Below are positions 35,467 to 56,336 of a DNA stretch of 64,000 nucleotides, one piece after another (within the stretch, counting starts at the first letter, position 1; each line of letters begins with the position of its first letter). The notes under the pieces were generated by a model that was given only the letters and a program-made list of their open reading frames with translations, made no database searches and was not told the DNA's origin. The translations under genes and the position numbers were made by a program. Origin of the DNA: an uncultured virus (IMG/VR IMGVR_UViG_3300037512_001285) (lineage: Duplodnaviria; Heunggongvirae; Uroviricota; Caudoviricetes); the IMG/VR virus record IMGVR_UViG_3300037512_001285, positions 1-64,000 of that record; one strand, 5' to 3'.

Positions 35467-36810
35467 TTAAATCACGCCGTCATCGCCGTTATTAACGCCA
35501 CGCAAATCATAATCAATAAACGCAATATAATATCCGAAATCTTCGGCGTATGTTTTCCAATCGTCTCCGGTATACCCATGAATTACATTAACAAATACTA
35601 TTGCTGCAAGATATACATGAGATTCTGATGGATCTGGGGGGAATGATGAGTAAAAAATACAAGGATATTCCCATATTTCGCTCAAATACATATGAGTTTT
35701 CGTTCTCCAAGCAATGTCATTTGTATCCAAGACTTTATATCCAGTTATTGAAGTATCGTCTTTTACTGTTATATCATATAGTTGCTGATTCATAGGTTCA
35801 TTCCACATACCATTTTGACTCGTATACATATATCCTCCATAAACCGGCCCACTAATAGTTCCTTCGGAATCAAATACAAATTCATATGTTGAATTATATA
35901 TATATCCGGGTTGTAATGCTGGTTGCCATGTATTATCACCAACATATCCGGGGAAAGAATAATTCAAATCATTAGTAATATTTTTTAGTAATAATATTTT
36001 TGGTTGAACTGGGGCGTCGGGAATAAATGGTAAACTTACTGTGCTGATTGATCCAGGACAGTTATAATTTGATAAAAGTGTACAAAGACTTGAAAAATAA
36101 TTATCGGAATCTCGTTCAGGAAGATTTTCATAATCAGATATAAAATCTAAAATACTATATTCACACATTGTATCAATAGATTCCTTGGTTAAAATAAAAG
36201 CATTATTTTTATCCTTTGGATAATATTTTTGACCATATGTAACCAAATTATCTTCTTCAAGGCTCTGAAACCAACTATAATATCCTTCTTCGCCAAGCTC
36301 ATTTATCATTTTATTTATAAATGTTTGAGCATCATCATTGATATTAAAATCATTATCAAGAGTGCTTTTTACAAATGATATTTGATTCGATGATAAATTA
36401 ACATGATATATTTGTTCTACCCAAAATGCCCCCATATCATATCTATGAGCCGACGGTGTATTTGTAAGTATTCCGTCATAATAATCAGTTGGTATTGAAT
36501 CCAATAATCCATTTTTAGCGACATAGTCGCCAGATGGAGATCCACCAGACACATCAACGTCAGCATACTCGTAAGCAGCAACGTTAACAGTGCCGTTTTC
36601 TGTAATTTCAATAGTACCAGTAGGAGTACTTCCACCAGATACATTCACTTCTGCTGTGGCGTAATCGGTGACATCTACCTCACCGTTCTCTGTAATCTGG
36701 ATGGTTCCGGTAGGAGAATCATGTATATCAAGAGACTCAGCAAGCTCGTCTGAAGGAACTACTTGAGTTATATAACCCGCGTTTTTAAGTTTATCAACTA
36801 TTTCACTCAT
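35467..36810 (-). CDS. Putative virion structural/fibre protein
   Basis: Tandem PTGTI.ITENG.V.V..Y..A.V.VSGG repeats; acidic body. Confidence 0.55.
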   Translation of the reverse strand: MSEIVDKLKNAGYITQVVPSDELAESLDIHDSPTGTIQITENGEVDVTDYATAEVNVSGGSTPTGTIEITENGTVNVAAYEYADVDVSGGSPSGDYVAKNGLLDSIPTDYYDGILTNTPSAHRYDMGAFWVEQIYHVNLSSNQISFVKSTLDNDFNINDDAQTFINKMINELGEEGYYSWFQSLEEDNLVTYGQKYYPKDKNNAFILTKESIDTMCEYSILDFISDYENLPERDSDNYFSSLCTLLSNYNCPGSISTVSLPFIPDAPVQPKILLLKNITNDLNYSFPGYVGDNTWQPALQPGYIYNSTYEFVFDSEGTISGPVYGGYMYTSQNGMWNEPMNQQLYDITVKDDTSITGYKVLDTNDIAWRTKTHMYLSEIWEYPCIFYSSFPPDPSESHVYLAAIVFVNVIHGYTGDDWKTYAEDFGYYIAFIDYDLRGVNNGDDGVI

Positions 36811-36843
36811 TTCAAATTCTTTTATTTATACTATAATAATCAT

Positions 36844-36874
36844 AAAAAAAGACCCTCCTCGAAAGGAAGGTCTT
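36844..36874 (-). terminator. Intrinsic terminator ending the tRNA operon
   Basis: AGACCTTCC-TTTCGA-GGAGGGTCT followed by T-tract. Confidence 0.75.
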
Positions 36875-36881
36875 GGGTATG

Positions 36882-36953
36882 AGCCGGAAGTCGGAGTCGA
36901 ACCAACAACCTACGGTTTACAAAACCGTTGCTCTGCCATTGAGCTATTCCGGC
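36882..36953 (-). tRNA. tRNA-Thr(TGT)
   Basis: Cloverleaf; ACGGT-TTTGTAA-ACCGT. Confidence 0.9.
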
Positions 36954-36962
36954 GGGTATTTG

Positions 36963-37034
36963 AGTGAAGTGGAGGAATCAAACCTCCGTCTCCTGCCTTC
37001 TCGGCTAGGTGTTCTCTCACTAAACTAATTCCAC
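36963..37034 (-). ncRNA. tRNA-like RNA lacking a canonical anticodon loop
   Basis: Acceptor, D and T arms present; anticodon arm CCTAGCC-GAGAA-GGCAGG. Confidence 0.5.
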
Positions 37035-37439
37035 TGTTACGGTCCTCTATCGCGGTCCCGTATAAACACATCGTCGGATTTCTACCGAAGGCATTAGCGC
37101 GTTTGCCAATTTTCACTTCTTGCAAGTCTCTGCATCAGTATAAGCCGAATATTCTCATCAGAGATCCGTTATTACAAACTACAATCGCTTCAGTGATTTC
37201 GTTCCGGTTTGCCGTCATAGTCGCTGACGGTTTCCTCATTGGCTGTAGATAGGATAGGATTATGTATTATCCCTATCTCTCACTCCTCAAGACACTGACG
37301 TACGGTTCAGCACTCTCTTTAAGTCTCTGTTGTCGTGGTAGTCTCCTGGACTCGAACAGGAGTAGGACCATTCTGCATCTATCTTATACCTTCAAAGAAC
37401 TAATATAAAATAACTAAAATCTGAAAGAAATTTAATATG

Positions 37440-37517
37440 TGGTAGTCCCGGAGAGATTCGAACTCTCACTGAATAGATCCTAAGTCTATTGCCATCTTCC
37501 AGTTGGGCTACGGGACC
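37440..37517 (-). tRNA. tRNA-Leu(TAG), short variable loop
   Basis: ATAGA-CTTAGGA-TCTAT; encoded CCA. Confidence 0.85.
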
Positions 37518-37906
37518 AAGTAAAAAAAAAATCATCACCTGTACCTACTCGCTGCACGGCACATCTCCCGGTAACGTCAGTCTCGAGGACCAACGCGTCT
37601 TCGATAAAATCCAGGGCTCTTTTGGAACGATCTCTTGAGCTAAAGTGATGTAAATATCAAGTTTAGTATATACCCTAAACTAAGGTGGAGTCCCTATTAA
37701 CGGAACCGAGCCGATACCTTGCTCGAAAAATTACAAATGAAGATTTATACTCTCAGCCAAATGACTTACGTCATCACCTTATGAAGTTAAAATTCGGGTA
37801 TTTAGTCAACATTAACTTTACAACATTAACTTTACAACATTATTCAAATAAATACTTTATGACTATCCCTTAATTGGTCCACTACATAAGATGTAAAAGA
37901 AAAAGA

Positions 37907-38022
37907 GCGAAAAGTAATGACGTTGGTCAGGCGGGGATTCGAACCCCGGTCTCTTCATCATTAGTGAAGTGTCTTGTCCTCTAGACTACCCGATCGGACT
38001 AGCGAATAGGAACTTTATATGC
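37907..38022 (-). ncRNA. Y-RNA-like element C (encloses a tRNA-like domain)
   Basis: GCATATAAAGTTCCTATT...TTACTTTTCGC flanks. Confidence 0.55.
37924..37995 (-). tRNA. tRNA with AAT anticodon (Ile), embedded in element C
   Basis: CTTCA-CTAATGA-TGAAG; TTCGAAT T-loop; one acceptor mismatch. Confidence 0.6.
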
Positions 38023-38043
38023 TCTTTAAAAAAAAAAACACTC

Positions 38044-38176
38044 GCGGAAAGTAAGCAATATTTCGTCGGCTATGCCATTTGCCTATCTCCCGAGAGTATG
38101 AATGATTTTTTGCCGGGAGAGCTGGACTCGAACCAGCATACAACGAATCCAGATTAGCAATAGGAACTTTCTATGC
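38044..38176 (-). ncRNA. YrlA-like Y RNA (element B)
   Basis: Terminal stem, T arm, closed acceptor stem TCTCCCG/CGGGAGA, D arm. Confidence 0.65.
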
Positions 38177-38191
38177 AAGTGTAAGGTACAA

Positions 38192-38274
38192 GCGAGAAGT
38201 AATACAACTCCGGCTATGTCGGAATTGAAGGAATCGAACCTTCGTTGACCATTTTAAATAGGAACTTCTTTTGC
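38192..38274 (-). ncRNA. Y-RNA-like element A
   Basis: Same terminal motif; T arm plus closed acceptor AATTCCG/CGGAGTT. Confidence 0.55.
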
Positions 38275-38278
38275 TTGT

Positions 38279-38355
38279 TGGTGGGCACGGGTGGATTCGA
38301 ACCACCGGCTTTCACTTTGTAAGAGTGACGGTCTAAACCACTGGCGTACGCGCCC
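38279..38355 (-). tRNA. tRNA-Val(TAC)
   Basis: TCACT-CTTACAA-AGTGA; CCA. Confidence 0.9.
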
Positions 38356-38654
38356 ATAGATGCCGCATTTACGGTAGTGCGGCCAACCCAAGAATCGCTC
38401 TTCGAGCGAACCCGTAACCCCTCTCGACAACTTGGTCGACGGGAAATACCCAAACTAACACATGATGTCTCAGTCTCTCGGAAAGGATTTCTTCCGGTAC
38501 TCTTCCAGTAATACCTCTTTATGATACCATATACGTTCTATATTTGGATTAATAACGTTGCTCTACATATACCCATATTACCTCTTGCGGTCCACACCTT
38601 GGCATTGTTCCAATCTACCAAGTTCATTCCGTGAATTGTTAGTTGTACAAGACG

Positions 38655-38726
38655 TGGACACATGTGGGATTTGCACCCCTCTGTCACATTGCAAATGTGA
38701 CGTGCTACTATTACACTACATGGCCC
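38655..38726 (-). tRNA. tRNA-Ala(TGC), atypical T-loop
   Basis: TCACA-TTTGCAA-TGTGA. Confidence 0.7.
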
Positions 38727-39013
38727 ATATGAAACACATCTACCACAGATTGACAGTCACTAGCCTTTATTACTCCAATCTCCTTATTTGTAATGAGACC
38801 ATTGTTTAACTATTACAGGCATACCTCCCTACCTCGATGTGTTATAAAAAAAGAACTAATGATACTCACCTCAGCACCAATCTTGGCGTACTTCCCATCG
38901 AGTATCTGACCACCTCTCTTTATTAGTTCTTAATTAAGAGCATAATTGATACTAGTCTCAATTAATTGTTATATTAGAGCGGTATATCACCTCACTCTCT
39001 AATATATCTCTTG

Positions 39014-39084
39014 CGGTCCATAGGAGTGCTGCCCTCCTGACCTTGGCGTGACAAGCCAATAGTTTACTGTTAGCCTAATGGACC
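39014..39084 (-). tRNA. tRNA-Asp(GTC), atypical T-loop
   Basis: TTGGC-TTGTCAC-GCCAA. Confidence 0.8.
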
Positions 39085-39091
39085 AATATTG

Positions 39092-39164
39092 CGGCTCGGA
39101 CAGGGTACGATCCTGTAACCTATTGATTAACAGTCAATTGCGCTACCAATTGCGCTACCGAGCC
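39092..39164 (-). tRNA. tRNA-Asn(GTT)
   Basis: ATTGA-CTGTTAA-TCAAT. Confidence 0.9.
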
Positions 39165-39176
39165 ATGCTCATATGT

Positions 39177-39905
39177 TTATTTGTAATTTTCTTTTATATA
39201 TTTTTTCAATTCTTCCGATTTATGTGGTAATCCAAATCTTTTACAATAATTTTGTATAGTCATAAAAGAAACACCGTATTTCTTTCTTAAACTATCCATA
39301 ATATAATTACATTCGGTTAAATCTTCAATCAACTTTTCTTTCGTTATTTGAACCTTTAAGTTATTTATTGATTTTTGCACACAACTTTTTGAACAAAATC
39401 TTTGTTGTTTATATTTTACTTCAAATTCTTTACCACAGTATTCACAATTTTTAATAACATGTTTTCCCCATTTAACACTACTGTGACAAAAATTATCAGT
39501 TTGTGAATGACAATTAGGACAAAGCAATTGTAAATTTTCTAATCTATTATCACAACGATTTCCATTTATATGATGAAGTTGGAGAGTTATTGGACTATTG
39601 TTCCATTCAGTAATACCACAACATTCGCATTTATTTTCTTTATATTTTAATATTCTCTTTTTTAATTGGCCTGTTCCTATAAAATGATCATGAATGGAAA
39701 ATAACTCTTCATCCGTGAACATTTTTTTATTAGGATTATATTTTATATTTTTATCAAAATGCGAAATATCTATATTATATATAGTTATAAGTTTTTTAAT
39801 TCTATCATAATTATTATTAGTTGGTCTTAATCCAACTATATTACAAACGTTAAATATATTATTACTATTTTTAACGGCTTCTTCTAAAATTTCTTTGTTA
39901 ATCAT
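39177..39905 (-). CDS. HNH homing endonuclease
   Basis: CECCG, LQLHHINGNRCDNRLENLQLLCPNCH. Confidence 0.9.
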   Translation of the reverse strand: MINKEILEEAVKNSNNIFNVCNIVGLRPTNNNYDRIKKLITIYNIDISHFDKNIKYNPNKKMFTDEELFSIHDHFIGTGQLKKRILKYKENKCECCGITEWNNSPITLQLHHINGNRCDNRLENLQLLCPNCHSQTDNFCHSSVKWGKHVIKNCEYCGKEFEVKYKQQRFCSKSCVQKSINNLKVQITKEKLIEDLTECNYIMDSLRKKYGVSFMTIQNYCKRFGLPHKSEELKKYIKENYK

Positions 39906-39968
39906 ATTCTAACCCTCAACTTTATATAAAAATAATAAAGTGTGGGTTAGAATTTATTTAATAATTTG

Positions 39969-40039
39969 TTGCGGTACCTGGACTCGAACCCGGAAGCTCT
40001 CCTTCAAAGGGAGGCATGTTACCATTACATCATACCGCA
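39969..40039 (-). tRNA. tRNA-Gln(TTG)
   Basis: CCTCC-CTTTGAA-GGAGA. Confidence 0.85.
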
Positions 40040-40045
40040 ATTCTG

Positions 40046-40656
40046 TGACCCCAGGGGGACTCGAACCCACCGACCCCAACATTCTTACCACTATAGCTTT
40101 CGCTACCAATTATCCTCTGTTTCTGCTTTTACTTTTGCCTATTCAGTTGCCTTTGTTTCCCTTTTCAGCATATCTCAAGAAACATGTTTCCGAGTAATTG
40201 TTTGTGGTCTGGACTCTATCTTAACCATATTGAAATCTTGCAAGTAATTATCTCTTCTTATAGCTACAATGATTAGTGTGGTTTCAGCTCCACCGATTTG
40301 ATAACATTTCAACTTAGGTTCCTCCTGTATAGTCTCTACACACTGTCTAAGATTTAACTACCCTTCATATAGTCGTTATCTTGGGTAAGTGGTCTTACGA
40401 TTCCACTACATCTTTAACATTGGCTCGGTATTGGCATATATGGACTGTCTTCTTCCGTCTGGACTCTAAAGCGATGCTTCTGTGTTACCACCAGCATTAA
40501 CCAGGAGTGGTTTGTTATTTAGACGATTGTCCGCAACAATGCTCCGTACATCCATACTTAGCTTTTGCCGAATTAGGGAGGATTTTCAATGTATCTTTCA
40601 ACACAAAGTTCCAATTTTTCAAAAGTGTTGTGCTCTACCAACTGAGCTATGAGGTC
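40046..40656 (-). tRNA. tRNA-Lys(TTT) split by a group I intron (exons 40656-40621 and 40083-40046)
   Basis: Joined exons give CAACA-CTTTTAA-TGTTG and a full cloverleaf. Confidence 0.9.
40084..40620 (-). mobile_element. Group I self-splicing intron, 537 nt, no ORF on its coding strand in the track
   Basis: P (AATTCGGCAAAAGC), Q (AATACCGAGCC), R (GTAGAGACTATAC), S (AAGATAGAGTCC); follows exon U, ends in G; P9.0 ACCAC/GTGGT. Confidence 0.9.
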
Positions 40657-40681
40657 CTTCCATTTTTCTATGAGTTATTTG

Positions 40682-40840
40682 TAGCATATCTTGGAGTCGA
40701 ACCAAGTATTTCCAGGGTAATCTTCCTGGCGAGCTTTGTGTCCGGTAGACCTTTATCCTAACAGAAAGAATTTATTTGCACTTCAACTCAATCCTGGATG
40801 TGGTTTCCACTTCTGTGTGTCTCCGACACTCTCATATGCC
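40682..40840 (-). ncRNA. tRNA-like RNA with long insert; possible mini-tmRNA
   Basis: Acceptor GGCATAT/ATATGCT, T arm, internal GCA-AAT...TAA frame. Confidence 0.45.
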
Positions 40841-40915
40841 GACAAGTCAGTGTGTATGCATCACCTCCTGAACTTGTGAAACAGGTTTATATGTATGACA
40901 ACTTCGCCTGTTTTG

Positions 40916-40992
40916 TCGGGGTGGAGGGATTTGAACCCCCGTGCAACCAGCTACGGTTTCGACAAGGTATAAGCTTGAGCCGATACACCCCG
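40916..40992 (-). ncRNA. Non-canonical tRNA-like RNA (TAT loop, rearranged arms)
   Basis: Acceptor CGGGGTG/CACCCCG, T arm, CAAG-CTTATAC-CTTG hairpin where the D arm should be. Confidence 0.55.
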
Positions 40993-40998
40993 AATGTG

Positions 40999-41074
40999 CT
41001 GGGATGAGAGGACTCGAACCTCCAACCGTCGACTTAACGGGCCGCTGCTCTCAACCAATTAAAGCTACATCCCA
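40999..41074 (-). tRNA. tRNA-Asn(GTT), C33 variant
   Basis: CGGC-CCGTTAA-GTCG. Confidence 0.75.
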
Positions 41075-41080
41075 ATATAG

Positions 41081-41207
41081 TGAATATGGTCGGATTCGAA
41101 CCAACATAGCCTGTTACTTCTCATCACCTCCCTTTAACATCGTCATGAAAGGTTCAAACGGAATATAGATTTTCTCCAGTAGCACATCCAATCTGCTTCA
41201 CATATTC
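41081..41207 (-). ncRNA. tRNA-like RNA with expanded anticodon arm
   Basis: Acceptor GAATATG/CATATTC, D and T arms intact; 127 nt. Confidence 0.55.
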
Positions 41208-41208
41208 G

Positions 41209-41286
41209 CGGCCCATAAGGGAGTCGAACCCTTCTTCTTACATACGCTGACGACGTAGTTCCACCTCACGGGTGGCCTAATGAGCC
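41209..41286 (-). ncRNA. Atypical tRNA-like RNA (GTC loop)
   Basis: Acceptor GGCTCAT/ATGGGCC, T arm, odd D hairpin CCACC/GGTGG. Confidence 0.5.
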
Positions 41287-41380
41287 ATTATTATAGACCG
41301 GGACTTACATTGTGCTACTCATGACTAACACCAACTATCTATTGATAGTGTCGGATTCAAACCGTACTCCTAACGCCAAG

Positions 41381-41453
41381 TAGACCCGGGGAGACTCGAA
41401 CTCCCATCACCCTGTTTAAGAGACAGGTGCATCAACCATTCTGCCACGAGTCC
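41381..41453 (-). tRNA. tRNA-Lys(CTT)
   Basis: CCTGT-CTCTTAA-ACAGG. Confidence 0.9.
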
Positions 41454-41539
41454 ATAGAATGCTCATCTAACCTTTAATTCAACTTTTACAACCAATTACC
41501 GGATGAGCCTGCAAGTTTTAGTCAACTATTCCTAGAAAG

Positions 41540-41617
41540 TGGTACTCCCAGAAGGACTCAAACCTTCAACCTTGTCCTTAGGACGGACCTGCTCTCGTTC
41601 AATTGAGCTATGGGAGC
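41540..41617 (-). tRNA. tRNA-Arg(CCT)
   Basis: GTCC-GTCCTAA-GGAC; CCA. Confidence 0.85.
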
Positions 41618-41629
41618 AAATGTTAAATC

Positions 41630-41686
41630 GCGAGAAGTAATAGTCAAAATAACTAGTTGTGTTTTCTTAATAGGAACTTCTTATGC
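41630..41686 (-). ncRNA. Minimal Y-RNA-like element D
   Basis: GCATAAGAAGTTCCTATT...TTACTTCTCGC with no tRNA domain. Confidence 0.5.
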
Positions 41687-41697
41687 AATTTCAATGT

Positions 41698-41937
41698 TTA
41701 TTCAGCTTTCTCGTCTTTCTTGGTCTTCTTGGGGAAGAGTTTCTTATAGAGAGTGTAGAATCCGAATCCCTCTACAGCAAGGTTAGCACCAGCAACCCAA
41801 CCATAGAAACTACCAATAGCACCAAGTGCAACTGCGTTCCATACTCCTGCTGCAGCGATCAATGCCGCGAAGCAAGCAAGTCCGAAACCAGCAACTTTTG
41901 CAAACTGAATCAATGTTTCTTTATTACTATCTGTCAT
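41698..41937 (-). CDS. Small two-TM membrane protein
   Basis: Hydrophobic helices, basic C-terminus. Confidence 0.7.
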   Translation of the reverse strand: MTDSNKETLIQFAKVAGFGLACFAALIAAAGVWNAVALGAIGSFYGWVAGANLAVEGFGFYTLYKKLFPKKTKKDEKAE

Positions 41938-41973
41938 AATCGATTATGTTTATTTATGAGATTGAGAATCTCG

Positions 41974-42056
41974 TGGGCAGGGAGGGATTCGAACCCCCGA
42001 AGGCGTCAGCCAACAGATTTACAGTCTGCCCGTTTTGACCACTTACCTACCTACCC
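41974..42056 (-). tRNA. tRNA-Tyr(GTA)
   Basis: GCAGA-CTGTAAA-TCTGT; long variable arm. Confidence 0.9.
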
Positions 42057-42205
42057 AAAATCGAATATCAAACTAACTTTCCTTATTTTGATGTATAGTC
42101 ACCTCAAAGGGTCCTCCTCAGAGACCGATCCAATGTCGGATTTCACTATATACTTTCCGTGTTGCGTCTGCCACCTTATTTGATATTCTTAATCTAAATT
42201 AATTA

Positions 42206-43309
42206 TTACTTTTTACTCTTTTGAAATCTCCCTAATTTCCATCCCTTGGATAAATATTCTTCTACTAATTCGATTTTAATGAATGTATTAATTTCATCTT
42301 TATTTACCCATCTCATATTTTTTCGTAAATTAGACATTTTTTTATTTTTCCAATGTCTTCCTTTATTTACCCCAACCAATTCGCCAGATAAATATTTTGG
42401 GTCATTTTTATCAATCATATATGTATTTCCATTAATATCTTTCACAGATATTTTTCCATTTATGGTTTTTCGTTTTGGTCTAAATAATTCACCCGATAAA
42501 TATCTTGGATCATTGGTTGATACAAAATATTTGTTTCCCTCTTTATCAACCGCAGATATTTTCCCTTTATTATAAGGGACTAATTCACCCGATAAATATT
42601 TTGGATCATTGGTTGATACAAAAAATGAATTGTTATTATTATCTACAACTTTCACTTTACCCTTAAAATAATTTGGTTGGGGGCTTTGTAACTTTTTTGT
42701 TCCATATATATATTTATCTGTTTTTCCTCTTTTGAACCCCAAATTTAAATAATGATTAAGATCGTCTTTATAAATAAATCTTATATCATTATTTTTATGA
42801 ATCCAACATCTATCACGATTTGATTCCAATATTTTTTCTTTATTAAAATGAACCTTTCTGCCTTTAATCCATCCATTAACCAGATATTTTTCTAATTCTC
42901 CTTTTTTGATAGATTTCGAAGTATCGTCTTTATATACCCAACACTTTCCGAATTGAGAATTTTTCTCTCCCTTTTGACTATCCTTATTTGATTTACTAAG
43001 TTTTTGTAAATCATTTTCTGTTAAGAAATACCCACCAATGGATAAATTATAGCAATTTGGATTGTTAATCAATTCTTCATTAACTATTTCTTTTTCGAGA
43101 TTTGATAATTCTTCAAGCGAATTACAAAATTGAACAATTTCTTTTGTAAAATTTTCTATACCATATTTTACATATGCATCTTGAAGCCTTTTTCCAGACC
43201 CCATATATCCATCATTCAAATTATTTGTAGAATGAATCCCATAATAAAAATGTCCATTAATATTATTTGTTATTTTATATAAATAGTAATATTTTTTGTT
43301 AAAATCCAT
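42206..43309 (-). CDS. GIY-YIG (Seg-like) homing endonuclease
   Basis: YLYKITN..NG.FYYGIH, YMGSG; C-terminal NDP.YLSGEL repeats. Confidence 0.85.
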   Translation of the reverse strand: MDFNKKYYYLYKITNNINGHFYYGIHSTNNLNDGYMGSGKRLQDAYVKYGIENFTKEIVQFCNSLEELSNLEKEIVNEELINNPNCYNLSIGGYFLTENDLQKLSKSNKDSQKGEKNSQFGKCWVYKDDTSKSIKKGELEKYLVNGWIKGRKVHFNKEKILESNRDRCWIHKNNDIRFIYKDDLNHYLNLGFKRGKTDKYIYGTKKLQSPQPNYFKGKVKVVDNNNNSFFVSTNDPKYLSGELVPYNKGKISAVDKEGNKYFVSTNDPRYLSGELFRPKRKTINGKISVKDINGNTYMIDKNDPKYLSGELVGVNKGRHWKNKKMSNLRKNMRWVNKDEINTFIKIELVEEYLSKGWKLGRFQKSKK

Positions 43310-43388
43310 AATCCTAAAATTGTTTTGTGGGTATTTAACTAAATAATAATAAAATAATTACAATTAATTTAACAAATAATTAAATGTG

Positions 43389-43471
43389 TGGTCCTGGGGG
43401 GAGTTGCACCCCCACACCCATATGAGTAAGGGTTTTTAAGACCCTTGTGTCTACTATTCCACCACAAGACC
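43389..43471 (-). tRNA. tRNA-Leu(TAA)
   Basis: AGGGT-CTTAAAA-ACCCT; long variable arm. Confidence 0.85.
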
Positions 43472-43518
43472 ATTAAATTGTTATCTCAAATAATATGAGT
43501 TAACTCATTGATTATTAG

Positions 43519-43592
43519 TCTGGTAGGAGAGATTCGAACTCCCGAAATCTTGGTCCCAAACCAAGCCCCTTAGACCGCTCGGACACTACCAG
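43519..43592 (-). tRNA. tRNA-Pro(TGG)
   Basis: CTTGG-TTTGGGA-CCAAG. Confidence 0.85.
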
Positions 43593-43749
43593 ATAGAGTA
43601 AAAAGAAGAATAATTCTTTCCAAGTCAACGCGTGTACATCGAATGATCATCAGATCCCTCTTTATCTGAATTGCAGCCGCAGTATAAATGCGGTTCGGAA
43701 GGAGAATCATTCCGATTCTTTATCCAACCTATATTGCGAGGATTCTTCT

Positions 43750-44691
43750 TTATTTTTCATATAATGAAATAAAATCCTTTCCATATTTGTTTTTAACATA
43801 ATCTATATATGGTTTAATTTCATTTTCATCAATTATCTTAATATTGTTTTCTTTACAACATTTTTCTTTTTCGACCCAACTCCTATCCTTGAATCCTTTA
43901 ATTTCAACCAATTGATTTTCATTGATAATAAAATCTGGGGTGTATGTATGTGTTGTTCCATTATATTTATAATTAAAACGAACTTTACATCGTTTAATTG
44001 GGATATCATGTTCAATACAATATACTAAATAAGCCAATTCCCACGAACTGTCACAATGAATACCATTATAATATCCCATAATTCCTTTGCACGGAATTTT
44101 TCCTTCTTCTCTTAATTTAGACATCGAAATGCTTAATTTTAATCTGGATTGTTTTGTGTCGTTTTTTTTATCATCCCAAAAAGAAATTAATTCACCCGAT
44201 TCAAATTTTTCTCTAATTGTATTAGTTGATTTATCATAAATTTTCTTTATATATTCTTGAGAAAAATTATCCCAGCCAGCCATTGTATGATTTAATTCAT
44301 GCGGTCTCTTTTTTATTTCAGTTCCAAGACAATTATGATGATATTTACAATGAGATAAATGAGCATTAAGAGATTGAGGATTATCAAATTCTCTTCCACA
44401 TTCACATTTGTATAAATTTTCTGATATTTTATATTTTGATTGTTTGTGTTCAAAATGATAATCTTTGCAATGACCATGATGACTCCTTAAAGAATTATAA
44501 GTCTTAAATTTTCTATGACAACATTCGCATTCAAATTCAAAATCACCATATTCTTTTATCTCTTGTAGTTTTTTATTTTTTCGTTCTTCCAAAATCCCCG
44601 GACATTTATGCGCGTTATACGCATTAATGCTCTTAAATTCTCGCCCACAATATTTACATATTATCTTATTCATAATTAAATAATAAAGCAA
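43750..44691 (-). CDS. Putative homing endonuclease (Zn fingers + TnsA-like PD-(D/E)xK)
   Basis: Three C..C....H-C fingers; DSSWE...YTPDF...EIKG; start probably 44673. Confidence 0.75.
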   Translation of the reverse strand: MLYYLIMNKIICKYCGREFKSINAYNAHKCPGILEERKNKKLQEIKEYGDFEFECECCHRKFKTYNSLRSHHGHCKDYHFEHKQSKYKISENLYKCECGREFDNPQSLNAHLSHCKYHHNCLGTEIKKRPHELNHTMAGWDNFSQEYIKKIYDKSTNTIREKFESGELISFWDDKKNDTKQSRLKLSISMSKLREEGKIPCKGIMGYYNGIHCDSSWELAYLVYCIEHDIPIKRCKVRFNYKYNGTTHTYTPDFIINENQLVEIKGFKDRSWVEKEKCCKENNIKIIDENEIKPYIDYVKNKYGKDFISLYEK

Positions 44692-44719
44692 ATTTGGAGA
44701 ATTTGGTAGACTATAGCTG

Positions 44720-44804
44720 TAGGGAAGGTGGGACTCGAACCCACATGGGACCTGCCCACTGGTTCCTTAGACCAGCCTGTATACCAAAATTCCAGCACTT
44801 CCCC
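44720..44804 (-). tRNA. tRNA-Leu(AAG)
   Basis: CTGGT-CTAAGGA-ACCAG; long variable arm. Confidence 0.85.
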
Positions 44805-44813
44805 GACTTTTTG

Positions 44814-44888
44814 TAGCGCTAGCGGAGCTCGAATCCGCAATCTTTACCTTGAGAGGGTAATGTCCTCAACCAATTAGACGATAGCGCC
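44814..44888 (-). tRNA. tRNA-Glu(CTC)
   Basis: TTACC-CTCTCAA-GGTAA. Confidence 0.9.
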
Positions 44889-45152
44889 ATACTAAAAAAT
44901 AACAATCGTCAGACCTCGACCATATATTTAGAATTAAGTCGACATCATCTCCATATATCTCCAAGTATCGAACATCAGTTCCTTGTAATCCCGGAAATAC
45001 TATTACATCTAAAAAATCCCGGGTGGATTTCATTTTTACATAATATTTATTTTACTCTTACTTTACTCCTGTACATCTTGTTGGTAAAATAAATATTTAA
45101 TTTGATTTATTAATATTTATTAATACATAATCATTACAAGGACGATTGTTAA

Positions 45153-45228
45153 TGGTAGCCCGTGGGGGACTTGAACCCACCGCCTCTGCCTTGAAAGGGC
45201 AGCGTGTTTGCCACTTCACTAACGGGCC
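45153..45228 (-). tRNA. tRNA-Glu(TTC)
   Basis: CTGCC-CTTTCAA-GGCAG; CCA. Confidence 0.9.
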
Positions 45229-45605
45229 GTATGCGCCGGGTGTTTTTGACCGAGCCCAGCATCTCGGGACTGAACTGTTAACGCTACAGTCATCCAACGA
45301 CCTTTCCATAGTCCACTTGCTTTCCCTCCGTTCTCAAACCGAACATCTCTGGTACTCACCTTCAATAGCTATAACGTGCAGGTCCTGTAACCGTCGTCGA
45401 AACGAACCTGATTATAACCAGTAGGTCTTTAGCCGGTTACTATAACCACCAGGAGTGCGTTTAAGACCTACAAACACTTACACATCTCTCTGATGAATAT
45501 ACTGTCCAAATATTATAAGATAAGACAATCACAGAACGTATATCAGATTCCTTTTGAGTCATGTGCTTTTATTGCGACTCGGTAAGGTTGAATGCATAAA
45601 CTGCG

Positions 45606-45678
45606 TGGACCTGGGCGGGATCGAACCACCGACGCAAGGATCTTCAGTCCTTCGCTCTACCAACTGAGCTACAGGTCC
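45606..45678 (-). tRNA. tRNA-Phe(GAA)
   Basis: AAGGA-CTGAAGA-TCCTT. Confidence 0.92.
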
Positions 45679-45979
45679 ATAGAGCCAAGACATTACTGCC
45701 CTGGCGAGTACCTCCCCACTGGAGGCACACCCTATAAGGCCTATCCCTACAAGGATTTCTTTTCAGCTCCTCTCCAAGCAGTCTTCACAGATACCACCCA
45801 AAGAGGTTTTTTACTCATATTATATTTCTTTCAGACTTGTCAATGAACTAGATATCTACTTGTGCTGAGCGCCAGCCTCGGACGTTTCCTGTTCCTCCTC
45901 CACTTTCAATATCTCTTACAGATTATATATACTAAACTCACATCGAACATTTAGTGATTTTCTTATATATTTTCTCTTG

Positions 45980-46052
45980 TGACCCCAGTGAGACTCGAAC
46001 TCACGATCCACTCTTTAAAGGAGAGTTGCTTTACCAGCTCAGCTATGAGGTC
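45980..46052 (-). tRNA. tRNA-Lys(TTT), intronless, C33
   Basis: ACTCT-CCTTTAA-AGAGT; same acceptor stem as the intron-containing copy. Confidence 0.8.
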
Positions 46053-46139
46053 ATAGTATTTCACTGACCTCATGGTGAGATCAGCACTTAATTATGTTTT
46101 CGTTTAATCTGTATCATATCTTCTTTTAATCTTATCTTG

Positions 46140-46216
46140 TATGGTAGACGAGACTCGAACTCGCATAAATGTCTGCATCCCAAATGCAGCCGGTGAACCA
46201 ATTACCGTACTACCAT
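46140..46216 (-). tRNA. tRNA-Pro(TGG), second copy
   Basis: CTGCA-TTTGGGA-TGCAG. Confidence 0.85.
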
Positions 46217-46451
46217 ATGTAAATAAAAAAATCTCAAGTGCTACTTTTCTTTTGCACCTGAGATTCTCTTTCTCCTAACGTCTTTCTATCACTTCATCAT
46301 CTCGTACGGTGCATATACTACCTTTCCTCGTCTTTGAGTTGATCAAAGAGGGCAACGGGTAAATATGCATTATACTTTCTCATGATAGATTTATGTTCTG
46401 TAATTAAAATAATAAGGAGTTTCTAAAAATTTAACAACGCTACAAATTTTT

Positions 46452-47264
46452 TTACATCCCTGTATCAAACTGCTCGGGAACGAACCTTACAACGAACCTC
46501 ACTCTATTGTCAAAGTCATCTGGACTAGCAGACTCACATACCCGCATCTCGTATTCGAATCCACCCGTCCCACTATAGTAGTGGTCCTGGTCTCCGTGTT
46601 CGAGAACCCAATCTTCCATACGCTTGATCATATCATAGACGTGTCTTTTGATAGCATAAATAGTAGGTACTTTATTCTCATATTCATTTCCCAATGAGTC
46701 CTCCCACTTAAACCACTTCCAATCAAGACACCTCATTACCTTATGAATCTTCGTCCAGTCCATATACAACATACACTCATCCACCTGATCGCGGAACTGC
46801 TTATATGAGCGTGGATCGGTAAGGAACTCCTTGAGTGTGGTCTTCTGTGGTACTCCGTCAAGCACTTCTTTGACAAACTCCTTCTTATTCTCCACTTCAG
46901 TGGAGACTGGCTCAAGCGTATCTGGGTCCATCTCTACTGTCTTCAATGTCTTTAGGTCAACGGTGGACACCAACCCACCAAGAAGTTTATCATTAAGGAA
47001 GTTCTGAAGGCAATACAAGAACAAGGACTTTTCCTTTTCATATACATCTTCTAATGTCTCATATCCTTTACAGTCAAAGAATGGATGCTTGAGCACCTCT
47101 TCTGTAAACTCTTCTATATTGTCTTTAAGAGCCTTGTAGTAGTCATCCGCAGTCCATCTGTCTAGGAGACCCGGGGTTCCGTCTGGTCCCACCGGCGCAA
47201 CCATCATCTTGTATTCTTTACAGATGTGCTTGAGAAAGTCTTCGAATTCTTTCGTTATAATCAT
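46452..47264 (-). CDS. Hypothetical protein
   Basis: 270 aa; DW.KIHKVM..LDWKW, TGGF. Confidence 0.75.
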   Translation of the reverse strand: MIITKEFEDFLKHICKEYKMMVAPVGPDGTPGLLDRWTADDYYKALKDNIEEFTEEVLKHPFFDCKGYETLEDVYEKEKSLFLYCLQNFLNDKLLGGLVSTVDLKTLKTVEMDPDTLEPVSTEVENKKEFVKEVLDGVPQKTTLKEFLTDPRSYKQFRDQVDECMLYMDWTKIHKVMRCLDWKWFKWEDSLGNEYENKVPTIYAIKRHVYDMIKRMEDWVLEHGDQDHYYSGTGGFEYEMRVCESASPDDFDNRVRFVVRFVPEQFDTGM

Positions 47265-47355
47265 ATCATTTATATTTTAATTAATTAAGTATTCCAATAA
47301 AGAATATCATCATAATCGGGCAAATTATCCATTTTATAATTGGTTAGGGGTTTAA

Positions 47356-47985
47356 TTAATATATTACTTGCTTGTTTAGTTTGTTTAAGATGTCGCGTAT
47401 CTCAACCGGATAATAGTCATTGTTATCTACTCCGACATCATATGTAAGACCCGGTTTAAGTATCAAGTCAAATCCTGGCTGGTCTACCTCACTCCTTACT
47501 CTCGGTCCACTATGGATATGACCGTGAAGGTTAAGTGTCCCTCTCCGAAAGTGTGGCCAGGTCGCAAGCGGGAAGTGACTGAGCATCAGTTCGTGTTCAC
47601 GAGATGGTTTATCTTCATCAATCCCACTCACAAAGATCATTGCTGTATCGGATATCAGGTCTACCCTATCCATCTTCTTCACTAACTTAAACTGATCGTC
47701 CGTGTCGTGATTGCCTGGAAGGATAAATATGTGTCCTCCGCGCAATTCATCTATCTTCTTTTTCACAGCCACCGGGTCTTTCCTCCAACAGAAGTCTCCA
47801 AGCACAAACACAACGTCGTCATCCCCCACCACTTCGTTCCACCTATCAGTCAAGGCCTTATTCATATCTTTGATATCACCCCAAGGCCTGTTACAGAACC
47901 TCACTACGTTGACATGGTCGAAGTGCTGATCGCTAGTGAACCAACACCTTGCTCCAGGCTGTAGTCTTATATGAATTCTGTCCAT
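47356..47985 (-). CDS. Calcineurin-like metallophosphoesterase
   Basis: FTSDQHF.H, GDF, GNHD, HGHIH, DVGVD. Confidence 0.9.
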   Translation of the reverse strand: MDRIHIRLQPGARCWFTSDQHFDHVNVVRFCNRPWGDIKDMNKALTDRWNEVVGDDDVVFVLGDFCWRKDPVAVKKKIDELRGGHIFILPGNHDTDDQFKLVKKMDRVDLISDTAMIFVSGIDEDKPSREHELMLSHFPLATWPHFRRGTLNLHGHIHSGPRVRSEVDQPGFDLILKPGLTYDVGVDNNDYYPVEIRDILNKLNKQVIY

Positions 47986-53034: not shown

Positions 53035-54105
53035 TTAACAAGATTTTTTATAACCATGAACTTTAAATAGATGACATTCTTTGCAATAAGTTATAAGATT
53101 CTCAAGATCATTCAATCTTGAATCATTTCTCATTATATCATATAATTCTTGTTCATTTTTAATAATATTTAATTCTGGATGTTCATTAAGTATCTCTTCA
53201 AATAATTCTTTAAATGATATTATATGATGAACTTGGAGTTTCTTTTTACTCCCACATAATTGACATTTATAATTATCTCTCTTTAATATCTCGGGAATTT
53301 GATTTACCCGAAAATATTCACGAAGCCTCATATATAATCCTGTTCTACCACCTTTCCAATTGGGATGATTCTCTCCTATAAATCGCCCTTTTCTCGCTTC
53401 TGAATTACCTCTCACCTTAATGCCGAATTTCTTTAATCTATTATCAACAACACTAGGAGCTACATCATATTGAACTCCTATATCCTTTTTAGACATTTTA
53501 TTAGTTACATACATGTCATATAACTTTTCGAAATCGTCTAAATCGGAAGGATATTCTTTTTTATTATGGGAAAATTGTGATTCTGATAAAGATCTGGTTT
53601 TTATAACACCACTACATTTTATGTGTTTTAATACAGTTGCTGAAGTAAAACCAACCATTTTAGATATTTCTGGACCAGACAATCCCTGATTATATAATGA
53701 TATTATCAAATCGTCTTTTGATTTATCAGACTCATATGTAGACATCATGTTATGATATACTGTCGGATCTCTTTTTAACCCTAATTCTTTTGCTCTTCTA
53801 CGAATCGGACCAGAATCACAATGAAATGTTTCCCTCATAATTCGCATGGGAACCCCATTCAAATACATTTCCGTTAATAATTTATCATCAAAAACCAATT
53901 TATTATAAGCTTCAAAGTGATATTCTTTATTCGGAATGTTTCCTGTTGGTCTAGTTGGTATTTTATATTTTTTTATCCAATATAAAACCTTTTCTTTTTT
54001 AAGATTTAATAATTTGCCAATTTCTGAACAAGTCATTTGTTTATTGACATATAAATCAAACAGTTCTTCTTTTGTAATCGGAAAATTTTTAGTGGTGTCT
54101 TTCAT
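53035..54105 (-). CDS. HNH homing endonuclease with HTH repeats
   Basis: HPNWKGG, RDNYKCQLCG, VHH, NL.T.C..CH; start MKDTT. Confidence 0.85.
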   Translation of the reverse strand: MKDTTKNFPITKEELFDLYVNKQMTCSEIGKLLNLKKEKVLYWIKKYKIPTRPTGNIPNKEYHFEAYNKLVFDDKLLTEMYLNGVPMRIMRETFHCDSGPIRRRAKELGLKRDPTVYHNMMSTYESDKSKDDLIISLYNQGLSGPEISKMVGFTSATVLKHIKCSGVIKTRSLSESQFSHNKKEYPSDLDDFEKLYDMYVTNKMSKKDIGVQYDVAPSVVDNRLKKFGIKVRGNSEARKGRFIGENHPNWKGGRTGLYMRLREYFRVNQIPEILKRDNYKCQLCGSKKKLQVHHIISFKELFEEILNEHPELNIIKNEQELYDIMRNDSRLNDLENLITYCKECHLFKVHGYKKSC

Positions 54106-54191
54106 GTATAAATAATAATAAAACAACCAATAAAAATAAATCAACCCACAGCCACCCGAGAATTTCAATCCAATAAAAAAAAAGAGATTGA

Positions 54192-56336
54192 TTACTCAAC
54201 CTCTTTACTATAGATTCGTTTTGATTCTTCTATCTTTCGAGCATTTTCAAAGTTTTTGACGGGGCGGAGATAACCAATAATTCTCGTCCAATCGGTTACT
54301 TCCTCCGATCCACACACAGGACAAACACTAAAATGTCTCTTTTCAATATGATTGCAATGATCACAGGAACATTGCTTTATATTAAAAGTATAGTAGTTTG
54401 TACCTTCACCAATTGCAAAATCCATCAACTTTAAGTATTGTTCTTTTGAAAGATGTGAATCCAGGTTGATGTGGCACCCAACACCACCAGAAAGATTCTT
54501 TACAAAATCTCTACCGTGCATTCTGAGTTTATCAAGAACTGAAGTCTTGGGGTCATCTGCAAGATAAAAATATGAATTGTAAAGAACTCTATCTTTAGGT
54601 ACCCAATATCCATCTTCTCTGTCCCAGTTATAATTCTTTCCACCAAGGCTTTCTGCTGGCACAAACTCAAGATTCATCTTGTATTTTTTATCCATTATCT
54701 TGTCTTCTTCTCTTGAGATCAGTCCGGTCAGATATTGACAAAATTCTTTATAATCATCATTACAACTACATTTCAAACCAACATATTCTGCAGCTTCATT
54801 AAATCCATTAACCCCTATTGTAGAGAACAATTTGTCCATTGTGATATATCCCGCCGTTGATGCAGACAACATTCCTTTCTTCTCTACATCATACAGAAGA
54901 TTTTTATAAGCGATATGATATTTGATGACTCTGTTAACAATATCGCAAAAATATGATTCAAACTCATTTGTTTTGTAATTGCGCCTTTTAACAACAGGGT
55001 CTCCATTCCCAATGGATCTAAAATAATTTTGAATTATTCTGTTAAGATTTAACGTAATTACATTACACGACCCAGTGGCCACACCAGAGAGTCCGTTGGT
55101 AAAACTAAATTCTTTGGCGTCCGGTGACAGGGAATTGCGAAGCCTGCAACAGCTGGCCAGTGAGTCAGGACTATCAGAGAGATATAAGAAAAACGAATGC
55201 CCTTCTGACCACATTTCAGCGGTGAAGTTTTTGTATTCTTTATCAATAACATCTTGGCCATCTGTGAGAAGAGCCATAGTTTCAACAGGGAATGTGAGAA
55301 GCGTCTTGCTTCTTTCATTATTAAACCACTTCATAAAATCTTTTTGTAACCAACTTACTCTTTCCCAAGATGGTTGTGTTCCGTCAGGAAAATAAAAGTT
55401 ATCAAAAAGAGAATGCCAATAACCAGAATCATAATAAGAAATATTGGTGAATGGACTTTGGCTAGATCTGTTTCCGCTTGGTTGATTCCAGCAATAAATC
55501 ACTTGTTGGAATGCCTGATGAATTTTTCCGTGTATGGTTTTTCTATTTTTTACAAACTCGGTATCCGCCCAATCATCAAGATGATTTATGTAATCATCCC
55601 CAAATTCTTTTGTGCAGAAATAATCAAAGAAATTAAAAAACTCACCAAAAGCAACAGCACCTTTACATTGACTCGCTAAGAGAAATGTTAAATTAACCAA
55701 TTGACCACAAAATGAATTGAGATTTTTTGGAGCAACAATATTCAAACCATCCATATTTTTGGTTCCATCAATCAACAATGGATACAGAGTAACTGCTTCA
55801 CAATAATTCTTTACTGAAGGAGAAGACGCCTCATCATGGATATAAATAATGTGATTGTTTATATCCTTCTCATATTGATCTGCAACCTCTGGTGATGTTT
55901 TCTTTAATTCGCGACGCATTCTGTATCTATGACTTGCTCTGTTTGTGGTTTTATATACCTCACCATCGAGATTTGATACATTTTTGTTTGTAACGTTTGC
56001 ATTTGGATCTGTTTCTGAAGAGGATGCGGCATTATCAGACGAATCCATATATTCATCCATATATTTGATTCTGTTTTTTATAAAAGACAGATCTTCTCCA
56101 TGTTTTATATATGAACGCGCTACTTTTTTATTGATAGACATCAGCTGATCCTCAACCATTTCACGAATGTCTGCTGTGGATATTCCATCGAATATATCCA
56201 AGTTATTGACGATATCGTTAGCCAATCCTTCATCATATTTTTGTTTAGAATGTTTATAGGCAGCATATATGCCACTTTTTACTTTACTGGGCTCGTAAAG
56301 TTCATACGAACCGTCACTCTTTCTAACATTAATCAT
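54192..56336 (-). CDS. nrdD: Anaerobic (class III) ribonucleotide reductase with ATP cone
   Basis: V.K.DG cone, YIHD, SCCRL, PAE, CxxC-CxxC, RIIGYL. Confidence 0.95.
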   Translation of the reverse strand: MINVRKSDGSYELYEPSKVKSGIYAAYKHSKQKYDEGLANDIVNNLDIFDGISTADIREMVEDQLMSINKKVARSYIKHGEDLSFIKNRIKYMDEYMDSSDNAASSSETDPNANVTNKNVSNLDGEVYKTTNRASHRYRMRRELKKTSPEVADQYEKDINNHIIYIHDEASSPSVKNYCEAVTLYPLLIDGTKNMDGLNIVAPKNLNSFCGQLVNLTFLLASQCKGAVAFGEFFNFFDYFCTKEFGDDYINHLDDWADTEFVKNRKTIHGKIHQAFQQVIYCWNQPSGNRSSQSPFTNISYYDSGYWHSLFDNFYFPDGTQPSWERVSWLQKDFMKWFNNERSKTLLTFPVETMALLTDGQDVIDKEYKNFTAEMWSEGHSFFLYLSDSPDSLASCCRLRNSLSPDAKEFSFTNGLSGVATGSCNVITLNLNRIIQNYFRSIGNGDPVVKRRNYKTNEFESYFCDIVNRVIKYHIAYKNLLYDVEKKGMLSASTAGYITMDKLFSTIGVNGFNEAAEYVGLKCSCNDDYKEFCQYLTGLISREEDKIMDKKYKMNLEFVPAESLGGKNYNWDREDGYWVPKDRVLYNSYFYLADDPKTSVLDKLRMHGRDFVKNLSGGVGCHINLDSHLSKEQYLKLMDFAIGEGTNYYTFNIKQCSCDHCNHIEKRHFSVCPVCGSEEVTDWTRIIGYLRPVKNFENARKIEESKRIYSKEVE

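Follow-up and report, generated by a model that had tools for sequence, protein, structure and literature searches.

A stretch of 64,000 nucleotides (nt) from an uncultured virus of the Caudoviricetes (IMG/VR record IMGVR_UViG_3300037512_001285, positions 1 to 64,000), hereafter the window, carries a transfer RNA (tRNA) gene for lysine whose anticodon loop is interrupted by 537 nt. We have good confidence that this insert is a ribozyme intron of group I, akin to those of bacterial tRNA genes (IC3-like), placed at U36/A37 of a phage tRNA-Lys(UUU), probably a selfish passenger and predicted to splice. The intron has the group I fold, a guide that matches its own exon and a terminal G, and it belongs to a family with covarying pairs; judged from its letters, it very probably splices. 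The type is known from bacterial tRNA genes; what is uncommon is the host gene, and the genome is that of a large cattle-gut phage.

The split tRNA-Lys(UUU) gene lies on the minus strand (40656-40046), starting with G40656 and ending with the discriminator A40046. Exon 1 comprises the acceptor strand, the D arm, and the 5' half of the anticodon arm as far as CUUUU at 40621, while exon 2 begins at 40083 with AAUGUUG and continues through the variable loop, the T arm, and the other acceptor strand. The insert between them (40620-40084) starts with G, is preceded by U, and has the 3' end ...GUGGUAAG, closing with G40084. With default settings, ARAGORN gave 19 tRNAs in the window, and the split tRNA-Lys was not among them; with introns allowed, it called tRNA-Lys(ttt) i(37,537) at 40045-40656. 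Moreover, the exons joined by their coordinates in a script were called tRNA-Lys(ttt), and no junction other than CUUUU/AA restores the 7-nt loop CUUUUAA. An original prediction, made from the sequence alone, had proposed a group I intron between positions 36 and 37 of a phage tRNA-Lys(UUU), and this is supported: its coordinates, the 537 nt, the exon-terminal U, and the terminal G are all correct by the sequence and by intron-aware ARAGORN, and the joined exons bear out its claim that removing the insert restores the anticodon arm. As it also stated, the intron contains no homing-endonuclease open reading frame (ORF), the longest minus-strand ORF wholly inside it having 45 aa.

An Infernal search with group I models, proposed with the prediction as a check, had a divided outcome. 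When 40040-40660 was compared by itself with RF00028 of Rfam, the match (40191-40630) covered the model end to end (1-253) with an E-value of 2.4e-7, yet its 35.4 bits fall below the gathering cut-off of 50, and independent support was therefore sought through relatives of the intron. The RF00028 alignment places the P, Q, R, and S elements where they had originally been seen. By this alignment and by covariation, the intron has the group I core P3-P8 with its P3/P7 pseudoknot, and P3, P4, P5, P6, P7, and P8 are paired in 81-100% of cells over 25 sequences, with compensatory changes. The GACU/AGUC part of P7 is present, and the G-C pair beside its bulged A is invariant in all 25 and, on the model of the Tetrahymena and Azoarcus introns, is taken to be the guanosine pocket. 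The 3' motif given above is conserved, and the G40084 that closes it is the omega G.

Relatives were found by scanning IMG/VR for an exact R string and an exact S string (core strings of 18-19 nt), which occur at 22 and 25 loci, respectively, all in phage contigs of 11-380 kb (numbered here with the prefix L). By intron-aware ARAGORN, every matched locus lies within a split tRNA gene, save for one uncalled copy in L021 (~765-930). Collapsing duplicates left 27 distinct calls, and the set used here consists of 24 relatives plus the window. Left out were a spurious 247-nt 'intron' call in L013 and the tRNA-Leu(UAA) intron of L043, a 177-kb IMG/VR contig, whose homologous last base is A instead of the terminal G and which may be a disabled copy. 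ARAGORN borders are ambiguous where intron ends repeat exon letters, and members were re-anchored by requiring the conserved 3' motif, U at position -1, and a loop of 7 nt on a 5-bp stem. The hosts are tRNA-Leu(UAA) (13 members, 10 at 34/35 and three at 33/34), tRNA-Arg(UCU) and tRNA-Ser(UGA) (three members each, at 34/35), a CAU tRNA for Met or Ile (three, at 36/37), tRNA-Gln(UUG) (one, at 35/36), a tRNA with an odd AGU loop (one, at 36/37), and tRNA-Lys(UUU) (L007 and L012 at 34/35, the window at 36/37). The lineage is thus found in Leu, Arg, Ser, Met/Ile, Gln, and Lys tRNAs and at four loop positions; with L051, which stands outside the 25-member set and interrupts tRNA-Lys(UUU) at 34/35, it occupies tRNA-Lys(UUU) at least four times.

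We aligned the 25 introns and their 12-nt exon flanks with MAFFT (alignment A1, 1073 columns), which gave long conserved blocks alternating with variable arms and includes a 542-nt tRNA-Gln intron (L004). Structure was scored on A1 for P2, P3, P4, P5, P6, P7 (as a pseudoknot), P8, P9, and P9.2, amounting to 54 pairs, with controls in which the pairing partners were slid by 1-3 columns and with 500 shuffles. Standard pairs fill 94.2% of cells versus 31-43% with slid partners, both-side (compensatory) changes occur at 24 of the 54 pairs versus 4-9, and none of five structure measures was reached by any shuffle. These compensatory changes are mostly in P2, P6, and P9.2, with P7 and much of P8 being nearly invariant. 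Because the exact core strings recur at so many loci and the structure covaries, the insert is more than a chance likeness.

Guide and exon change together. In the fixed A1 columns 224-227, four guide bases pair with the end of each member's own 5' exon, such that exon ends ACUU, GACU, UCAU, and, in the window, UUUU face the guides GAGU, GGUU, GUGU, and GGAA, respectively. A guide G stands opposite the final exon U (-1) in 25/25 members, forming the U.G wobble at the splice site, and pairing at -1 to -3 holds in 24/25, the exception being L022. In the window, P1 is extended by intron GA (40620-40619) with UU (40614-40613) around an AAAA loop, and RF00028 also puts a U.G pair at U40621, in its case with the next G (G40611). 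Furthermore, the trinucleotide immediately 5' of the guide pairs with the start of exon 2 (three bases) in 19 of the 25 members, among them the window. From the logic of these P1 and P10 pairings, the junction is therefore fixed at CUUUU/AA. A different P1, with CUUUU paired to GAAAG near 40596, was ruled out, as the alignment makes that stretch the GAAA loop of P2.

Splicing, with its steps inferred from the established group I pathway, would begin with a fold of the pre-tRNA in which the last exon bases UUUU pair with the guide GGAA (P1), with the U.G wobble marking the splice site. The cut after U40621 would then be made by a free guanosine bound in P7, the AAU of exon 2 would pair with the AUU beside the guide (P10), and the terminal G40084 would enter the P7 pocket, whereupon exon ligation would give a normal CUUUUAA anticodon loop. 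The positions of all elements are collected in Table 1.

Table 1. Positions of the split tRNA-Lys(UUU) gene, the elements of its intron, and other genes considered in the text (window numbering, except for the last row)
Feature	Coordinates	Strand	Basis or remark
5' exon of tRNA-Lys(UUU), tRNA positions 1-36, end CUUUU	40621..40656	-	sequence; intron-aware ARAGORN; joined exons
Group I intron, 537 nt, without endonuclease ORF; last base G40084 = omega G	40084..40620	-	RF00028, alignment A1, covariation
3' exon of tRNA-Lys(UUU), positions 37-73	40046..40083	-	sequence; ARAGORN
P1: exon UUUU (40624-40621) with guide GGAA (40612-40609), wobble U40621.G40612	40609..40624	-	A1 columns 224-227
P10 partner AUU, pairs with first three exon-2 bases AAU (40083-40081)	40613..40615	-	family rule
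P2 hairpin, GAAA tetraloop 40599-40596	40590..40605	-	helix 1: 6/6 pairs change on both sides, 95.3% of cells paired
P3 5' strand UCCUCC, partner 40325-40320 (GGAGGA)	40577..40582	-	helix 2
5' strands of P4 (40572-40567) and P5 (40562-40561), P element; partners 40429-40424 and 40435-40434	40561..40572	-	helices 3-4
Peripheral arm extending P5, variable in family, most like the L003 arm	40436..40560	-	A1 columns 276-446
3' strands of P5 and P4, Q element	40424..40435	-	RF00028, covariation
P6 (40419-40416 with 40347-40344) plus arm	40344..40419	-	helix 5: 3/4 pairs change on both sides
R element: P7 5' strand (40334-40328), then P3 3' strand (40325-40320)	40320..40336	-	RF00028, covariation
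P8 (40318-40307 with 40235-40225), with CCUAAG...UAUGG, variable insert, palindrome CUUGCAAG	40225..40318	-	helices 7-10
S element: P7 3' strand (40218-40212) and following bases	40207..40222	-	RF00028, family S string, covariation
P9 (40208-40204 ACCAC with 40091-40087 GUGGU), enclosing variable arm and P9.2	40087..40208	-	helices 11-12, both with compensatory changes
P9.2 hairpin, GAAA loop 40101-40098	40093..40106	-	helices 11-12
72-nt tRNA between intron and HNH gene	39968-40039	-	ARAGORN: Ser(tga); Rfam alignment: loop CUUUGAA = Gln(UUG), without long variable arm
Free-standing HNH endonuclease gene, 242 aa	39177..39905	-	Pfam PF13392 (HNH_3), PF01844 (HNH); phrog_10822
GIY-YIG-type gene in tRNA array	42206-43309		Pfam/phrog searches
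Another endonuclease-like gene in tRNA array	43750-44691		Pfam/phrog searches
Second Lys-like tRNA, same acceptor stem as split gene	45979-46052	-	Rfam tRNA alignment; ARAGORN
Split tRNA-Leu(UAA) of Agrobacterium phage Atu_ph07	L059 1091-1452 = NC_042013.1 ~112890-113251	-	without annotated RNA feature; 3' exon overlaps coding sequence gp154

As in IC3 introns, the insertion lies in the anticodon loop. GAAA loops cap P2 and P9.2, the sequence CCUAAG...UAUGG is found in P8, and its near copy GCUAAG...UAUGC is found in P5; these loops and motifs are presumably the L2-P8 and L9-P5 tetraloop-receptor pairs known from the Azoarcus and Anabaena tRNA introns (IC3), and by that analogy the L2-P8 and L9-P5 contacts may be made in the window intron. 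The IC3 subgroup is described, in a passage of PMC11835236, as being without the P5a-d domain. Here, the P5 arm spans ~125 nt (40560-40436) within a family range of a few bases to ~170 nt, and looks like a loop insertion.

For comparison, we retrieved three cyanobacterial tRNA introns with RF00028 (87.7, 67.8, and 59.4 bits; hosts Leu-UAA, Arg-CCU, and Met-CAU). In a 19-kb nhmmer search, the profile of the phage family matched the Leu-UAA intron of Aetokthonos from the exon through P1-P6 to R (E 2.1e-5, a weak 13.7 bits), with no match to the Trichodesmium Arg(CCU) and Met(CAU) introns at E-values up to 10. From the match to the Leu-UAA intron, the phage family is therefore regarded as a divergent offshoot of the classical tRNA introns of bacteria. 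With the cyanobacterial and plastid tRNA-Leu(UAA) intron (Leu.3Ug), the window intron shares the order P1, P2 with GAAA, P3, P4, P5, P6, R, and the Leu.3Ug site itself is used by 10 of the 25 members of the phage lineage, with tRNA-Leu(UAA) being the host of most. Unlike Leu.3Ug, the window copy sits in a different tRNA and two bases further 3', and the sequence similarity is weak (RF00028 gives 87.7 bits to the cyanobacterial copy and 35.4 to the window). Closer in position are the '5Ug' tRNA introns (Azoarcus tRNA-Ile(CAU), Agrobacterium/Trichodesmium-type tRNA-Arg(CCU); IC3), named in the nomenclature of Williams (2020), which are likewise inserted after loop position 5 (36/37) and have U at -1 and a terminal G, but not the tRNA-Lys(UUU) host or the phage genome. 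The window intron, with 537 nt and large arms on P5, P6, P8, and P9, also differs in size from the three cyanobacterial comparators (246-308 nt).

A plastid trnK(UUU) intron, which is a group II intron and carries matK, likewise interrupts the anticodon loop of tRNA-Lys(UUU), whereas the window intron is a group I intron without an ORF. The phage host is shared with the group I introns of phage protein genes (T4 td/nrdB type, crAss-like, Jug), but those interrupt ORFs. A related core, 86% identical over the R-to-S parts, is present in IAS virus, where two fragments of a DNA primase flank it. The Jug phages of the gut contain ~18 group I introns per genome (PMC12880540); that paper reports 2513 group I introns, and the word 'tRNA' is absent from its main text. 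In their review, Hausner et al. (2014; PMC3984707) point out that, numerous as phage tRNA genes are, every phage intron known by then interrupted a protein-coding gene. For bacterial genomes, Williams (2020; bioRxiv 10.1101/2020.01.27.920355) extends the four classical tRNA settings (Leu.3Ug, Arg.5Ug, fMet.2Ug, and Ile2.5Ug) to 21, and its running text, table and figure list aside, names the four classical classes and Leu.3Cg, with phages and Lys unmentioned. None of the papers returned by our literature searches describes a group I intron in a phage tRNA gene. The original prediction had called both the host gene and the site uncommon; tRNA-Lys indeed falls outside the four classical hosts, though 36/37 is the classical 5Ug site and the lineage occurs in tRNA-Lys(UUU) at least four times.

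How the intron came to this site can be approached through its relationships. In a rough, midpoint-rooted FastTree phylogeny of the 25 sequences (295 well-aligned columns), the window groups with L003 (Shimodaira-Hasegawa-like support 0.88), and this pair groups with L008 (0.90), both relatives being hosted by tRNA-Leu(UAA) at 33/34. Among the other Lys introns, L012 groups with an Arg(UCU) intron (0.82) and L007 is unplaced. The spliced tRNA-Lys genes are 84-87% identical, and orthologous genes therefore hold the lineage at two sites, with introns that are not each other's closest relatives, which we read as repeated re-targeting; the intron is at 34/35 in three genomes and at 36/37 in the window. 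Our tentative proposal, for which we would claim somewhat less than an even chance, is that this site was newly taken by a ribozyme lineage which is nearly confined to phage tRNA arrays and changes target when its 4-nt guide and 3-nt P10 partner are rewritten. The pattern fits repeated transposition between tRNAs, for instance through reverse splicing, better than vertical descent or classical homing. If this proposal is true, phage tRNA clusters are a natural test bed for target change by group I introns. In our main reading, the intron is most likely a selfish passenger without an endonuclease of its own, from a lineage that repeatedly moved among the tRNA genes of large gut and rumen phages with its guide changed each time. 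The family is also a natural series of guide changes matched to different exons.

A second route, collaborative homing, seems unlikely to us. Here, the free-standing HNH enzyme would cut intron-less tRNA-Lys alleles of co-infecting phages, with repair copying the intron in. The idea that the HNH gene mobilises the intron came with the original prediction, which put the gene start about 180 nt from the intron 3' end, and the distance is right (179 nt past the last intron base). Cyanophage psbA offers a precedent for free-standing endonucleases directed at the insertion sites of introns, and an HNH gene with 40-43% identity occupies the same relative place, in the ~600-nt downstream flank, at L022/L047. 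Still, by tblastn this is the only clear homologue in the ~600-nt downstream flanks of the 24 other family loci, with one weak match elsewhere in L007 (E 4e-4), so that at these loci the endonuclease is not seen to travel with the intron and the mobilisation claim is left unsupported. A tRNA-Gln(UUG)-like gene intervenes between intron and HNH at L022/L047 as it does in the window, and the two introns occupy different tRNAs; what the loci share therefore seems to be a block of tRNA-Gln and HNH rather than a pair of intron and HNH. In addition, the tRNA array contains two more endonuclease-like genes (Table 1), nucleases being common here beside tRNAs with or without an intron. Apart from two short, weak matches, a pattern scan of IMG/VR for the HNH protein returned nothing but this gene in the 240-kb twin contig.

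Several observations weigh against a group I intron that works. Besides its low score on the isolated region, RF00028 reports nothing at gathering score over the whole window, and nothing at E-values up to 10 over 36000-47500 (11.5 kb). If consensus means a base on which at least 22 of the 24 others agree, the window departs from it at eight of 146 columns, all of them in the guide, the bases after the guide, J2/3, and P4, where a C.A mismatch lies at the inner end. P1 consists of A-U and G.U pairs only, the T stem in exon 2 has one extra U relative to orthologous tRNA-Lys genes, and the minimum free energy fold is no more stable than shuffled sequences (z 0.17, with 51 of 100 shuffles at least as stable). 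Decay does exist in the family, as L043 shows that the terminal G can be lost, and the Lys(UUU)-like gene at 45980 could make the split copy dispensable. Taken together, these points would suit a decaying relic, group I by descent but splicing too poorly, in which the tRNA-Lys copy is a pseudogene and the phage uses the 45980 copy or the host tRNA-Lys.

Nonetheless, we find such a relic distinctly unlikely. The pairings of P3, P6, P7, P8, P9, and P9.2 are all intact, none of the eight departures falls in P7, the P3 3' strand, P8, or P9, and the guide and P10 partner both match this very site, which a dead copy would not need. Other members depart from consensus at 0-16 columns (35 in L040), and relatives that look functional do so as often or more (L006, 9; L009, 9; L010, 16; L021, 10). 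Short P1 helices are reportedly usual in tRNA introns that lean on the anticodon stem, going by the title of the 1993 work by Zaug et al. as cited in PMC3984707. The minimum free energy fold nevertheless recovers P3, P4, P6, P8, P9, and P9.2, together with a stem at the base of the P5 peripheral arm. As for RF00028, only five of 10 relatives were reported (31.1-42.5 bits), and the true member L051 was likewise missed; the large peripheral inserts cost score. We thus retain the reading of a group I intron that probably splices.

Very improbable, in our estimate, is that the intron is kept as a functional gate, delaying the supply of tRNA-Lys(UUU) or shielding it from PrrC-like host anticodon nucleases. 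tRNA-Lys(UUU) is the target of PrrC, the phage encodes an RNA ligase (20681-22156, minus strand, phrog_968), and the second Lys(UUU)-like tRNA has an unusual loop, but the lineage sits in at least six tRNA species without a common theme, relatives such as L018 have an intron-less tRNA-Lys(UUU), and nothing ties splicing to timing or defence; the HNH and PrrC ideas alike are speculation. The second gene had originally been described as an intronless Lys(TTT) copy, which holds in the Rfam alignment (loop CCUUUAA and anticodon UUU, with C33 where U33 is nearly universal) and fails in ARAGORN, where the stem is shifted by one base and the anticodon UUA gives tRNA-Stop(tta). This odd anticodon loop may bear on anticodon nucleases. 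Recoding of TAA, as the name tRNA-Stop(tta) might suggest, was ruled out: code 11 ORFs cover 53.8 of the 64 kb and TAA is the stop codon in 43 of the 53 long ORFs, which makes a UAA suppressor unlikely.

Beyond the 25 members, the exact 18-mer of R was found in 10 contigs from 185,579 species genomes, of which only L051 (a 35-kb contig of a metagenome-assembled genome of Wujia sp.) is a family member; the other nine were discarded as bacterial homes, being chance-like matches in coding or other sequence. The cultured jumbo phage Atu_ph07 of Agrobacterium has a 278-nt family member in tRNA-Leu(UAA), which is undiscussed in the literature that we found mentioning Atu_ph07 and introns. By blastn, the whole 611 nt of the split gene had no match among GenBank phages. 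The window's twin locus, L005, is on a 239.8-kb contig, where there is also a second member of the lineage (L010/L035), a 339-nt intron in tRNA-Ser(UGA) at 34/35. Separately, the variable arms of L012 and L014 hold T-arm-like hairpins with a 5-bp stem and a UUCAAUU or UUCGAAU loop.

The 3-kb stretch 39000-42000 is present in bovine-gut DNA runs of several studies, and an exact DNA contig of run X4 (39000-40226), from another study, spans the border of exon 2 and intron. For RNA, contigs of three bovine-gut metatranscriptomes and one DNA run were compared with 39000-42000. No exon-exon joint across 40084-40620 was among the 15 of 64 joints listed, and contigs cannot prove its absence. 'Skips' of 61-118 nt inside the intron also occur in the DNA run or have unknown letters between their two sides, and we read them as relatives with different peripheral arms. 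In RNA run X8, exact contigs of the intron core have depths of 231 (40221-40335) and 200 (40322-40432) versus 2-13 for exact contigs of neighbouring genes; as contig depth cannot rank regions and the core is shared by relatives, this is a weak hint at most.

Since default tRNA finders and Rfam miss the split gene, phage tRNA inventories are incomplete, as are the arguments on codon usage and anti-defence that depend on them. The tRNA genes of large phages emerge as a common home of this intron lineage, as against the protein-genes-only statement in the 2014 review passage (PMC3984707), and the unannotated member in cultured Atu_ph07 opens splicing and mobility to bench testing.

Within the intron, a conserved 8-nt palindrome (CUUGCAAG; 40244-40237, minus strand, A1 columns 812-819) is found near the tip of P8. 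Paired changes preserve its palindromy in L008, L009, and L016, and a simple hairpin does not explain it, as one changing pair would leave a 2-nt loop. An exact 12-nt direct repeat (40207-40218 and 40457-40468) places the P7 3' strand and the next five bases a second time within the P5 arm; the homologous place in the nearest relative, L003, differs, and the repeat may be chance or a small conversion.

Elsewhere in the window, an NrdD-like gene (53035-56336, minus strand) matches only part of the profile and has an HNH gene directly downstream, and may be a split nrdD. Nearer to the intron, 40683-40838 (minus strand) looks by eye like a tRNA-like RNA of ~155 nt, in which the acceptor stem would have 7 bp, the loop of the T arm reads UUCGACU, and the interior is long; it is uncalled by ARAGORN and Rfam, and an exact RNA-library contig covers 40667-40878. 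Finally, 40913-40992 (minus strand) has a tRNA-like acceptor and T arm with a weak match to the transfer-messenger RNA family RF00023 (26.7 bits, below the cut-off of 47), and metatranscriptome X16 contains an exact contig over 40911-40986.

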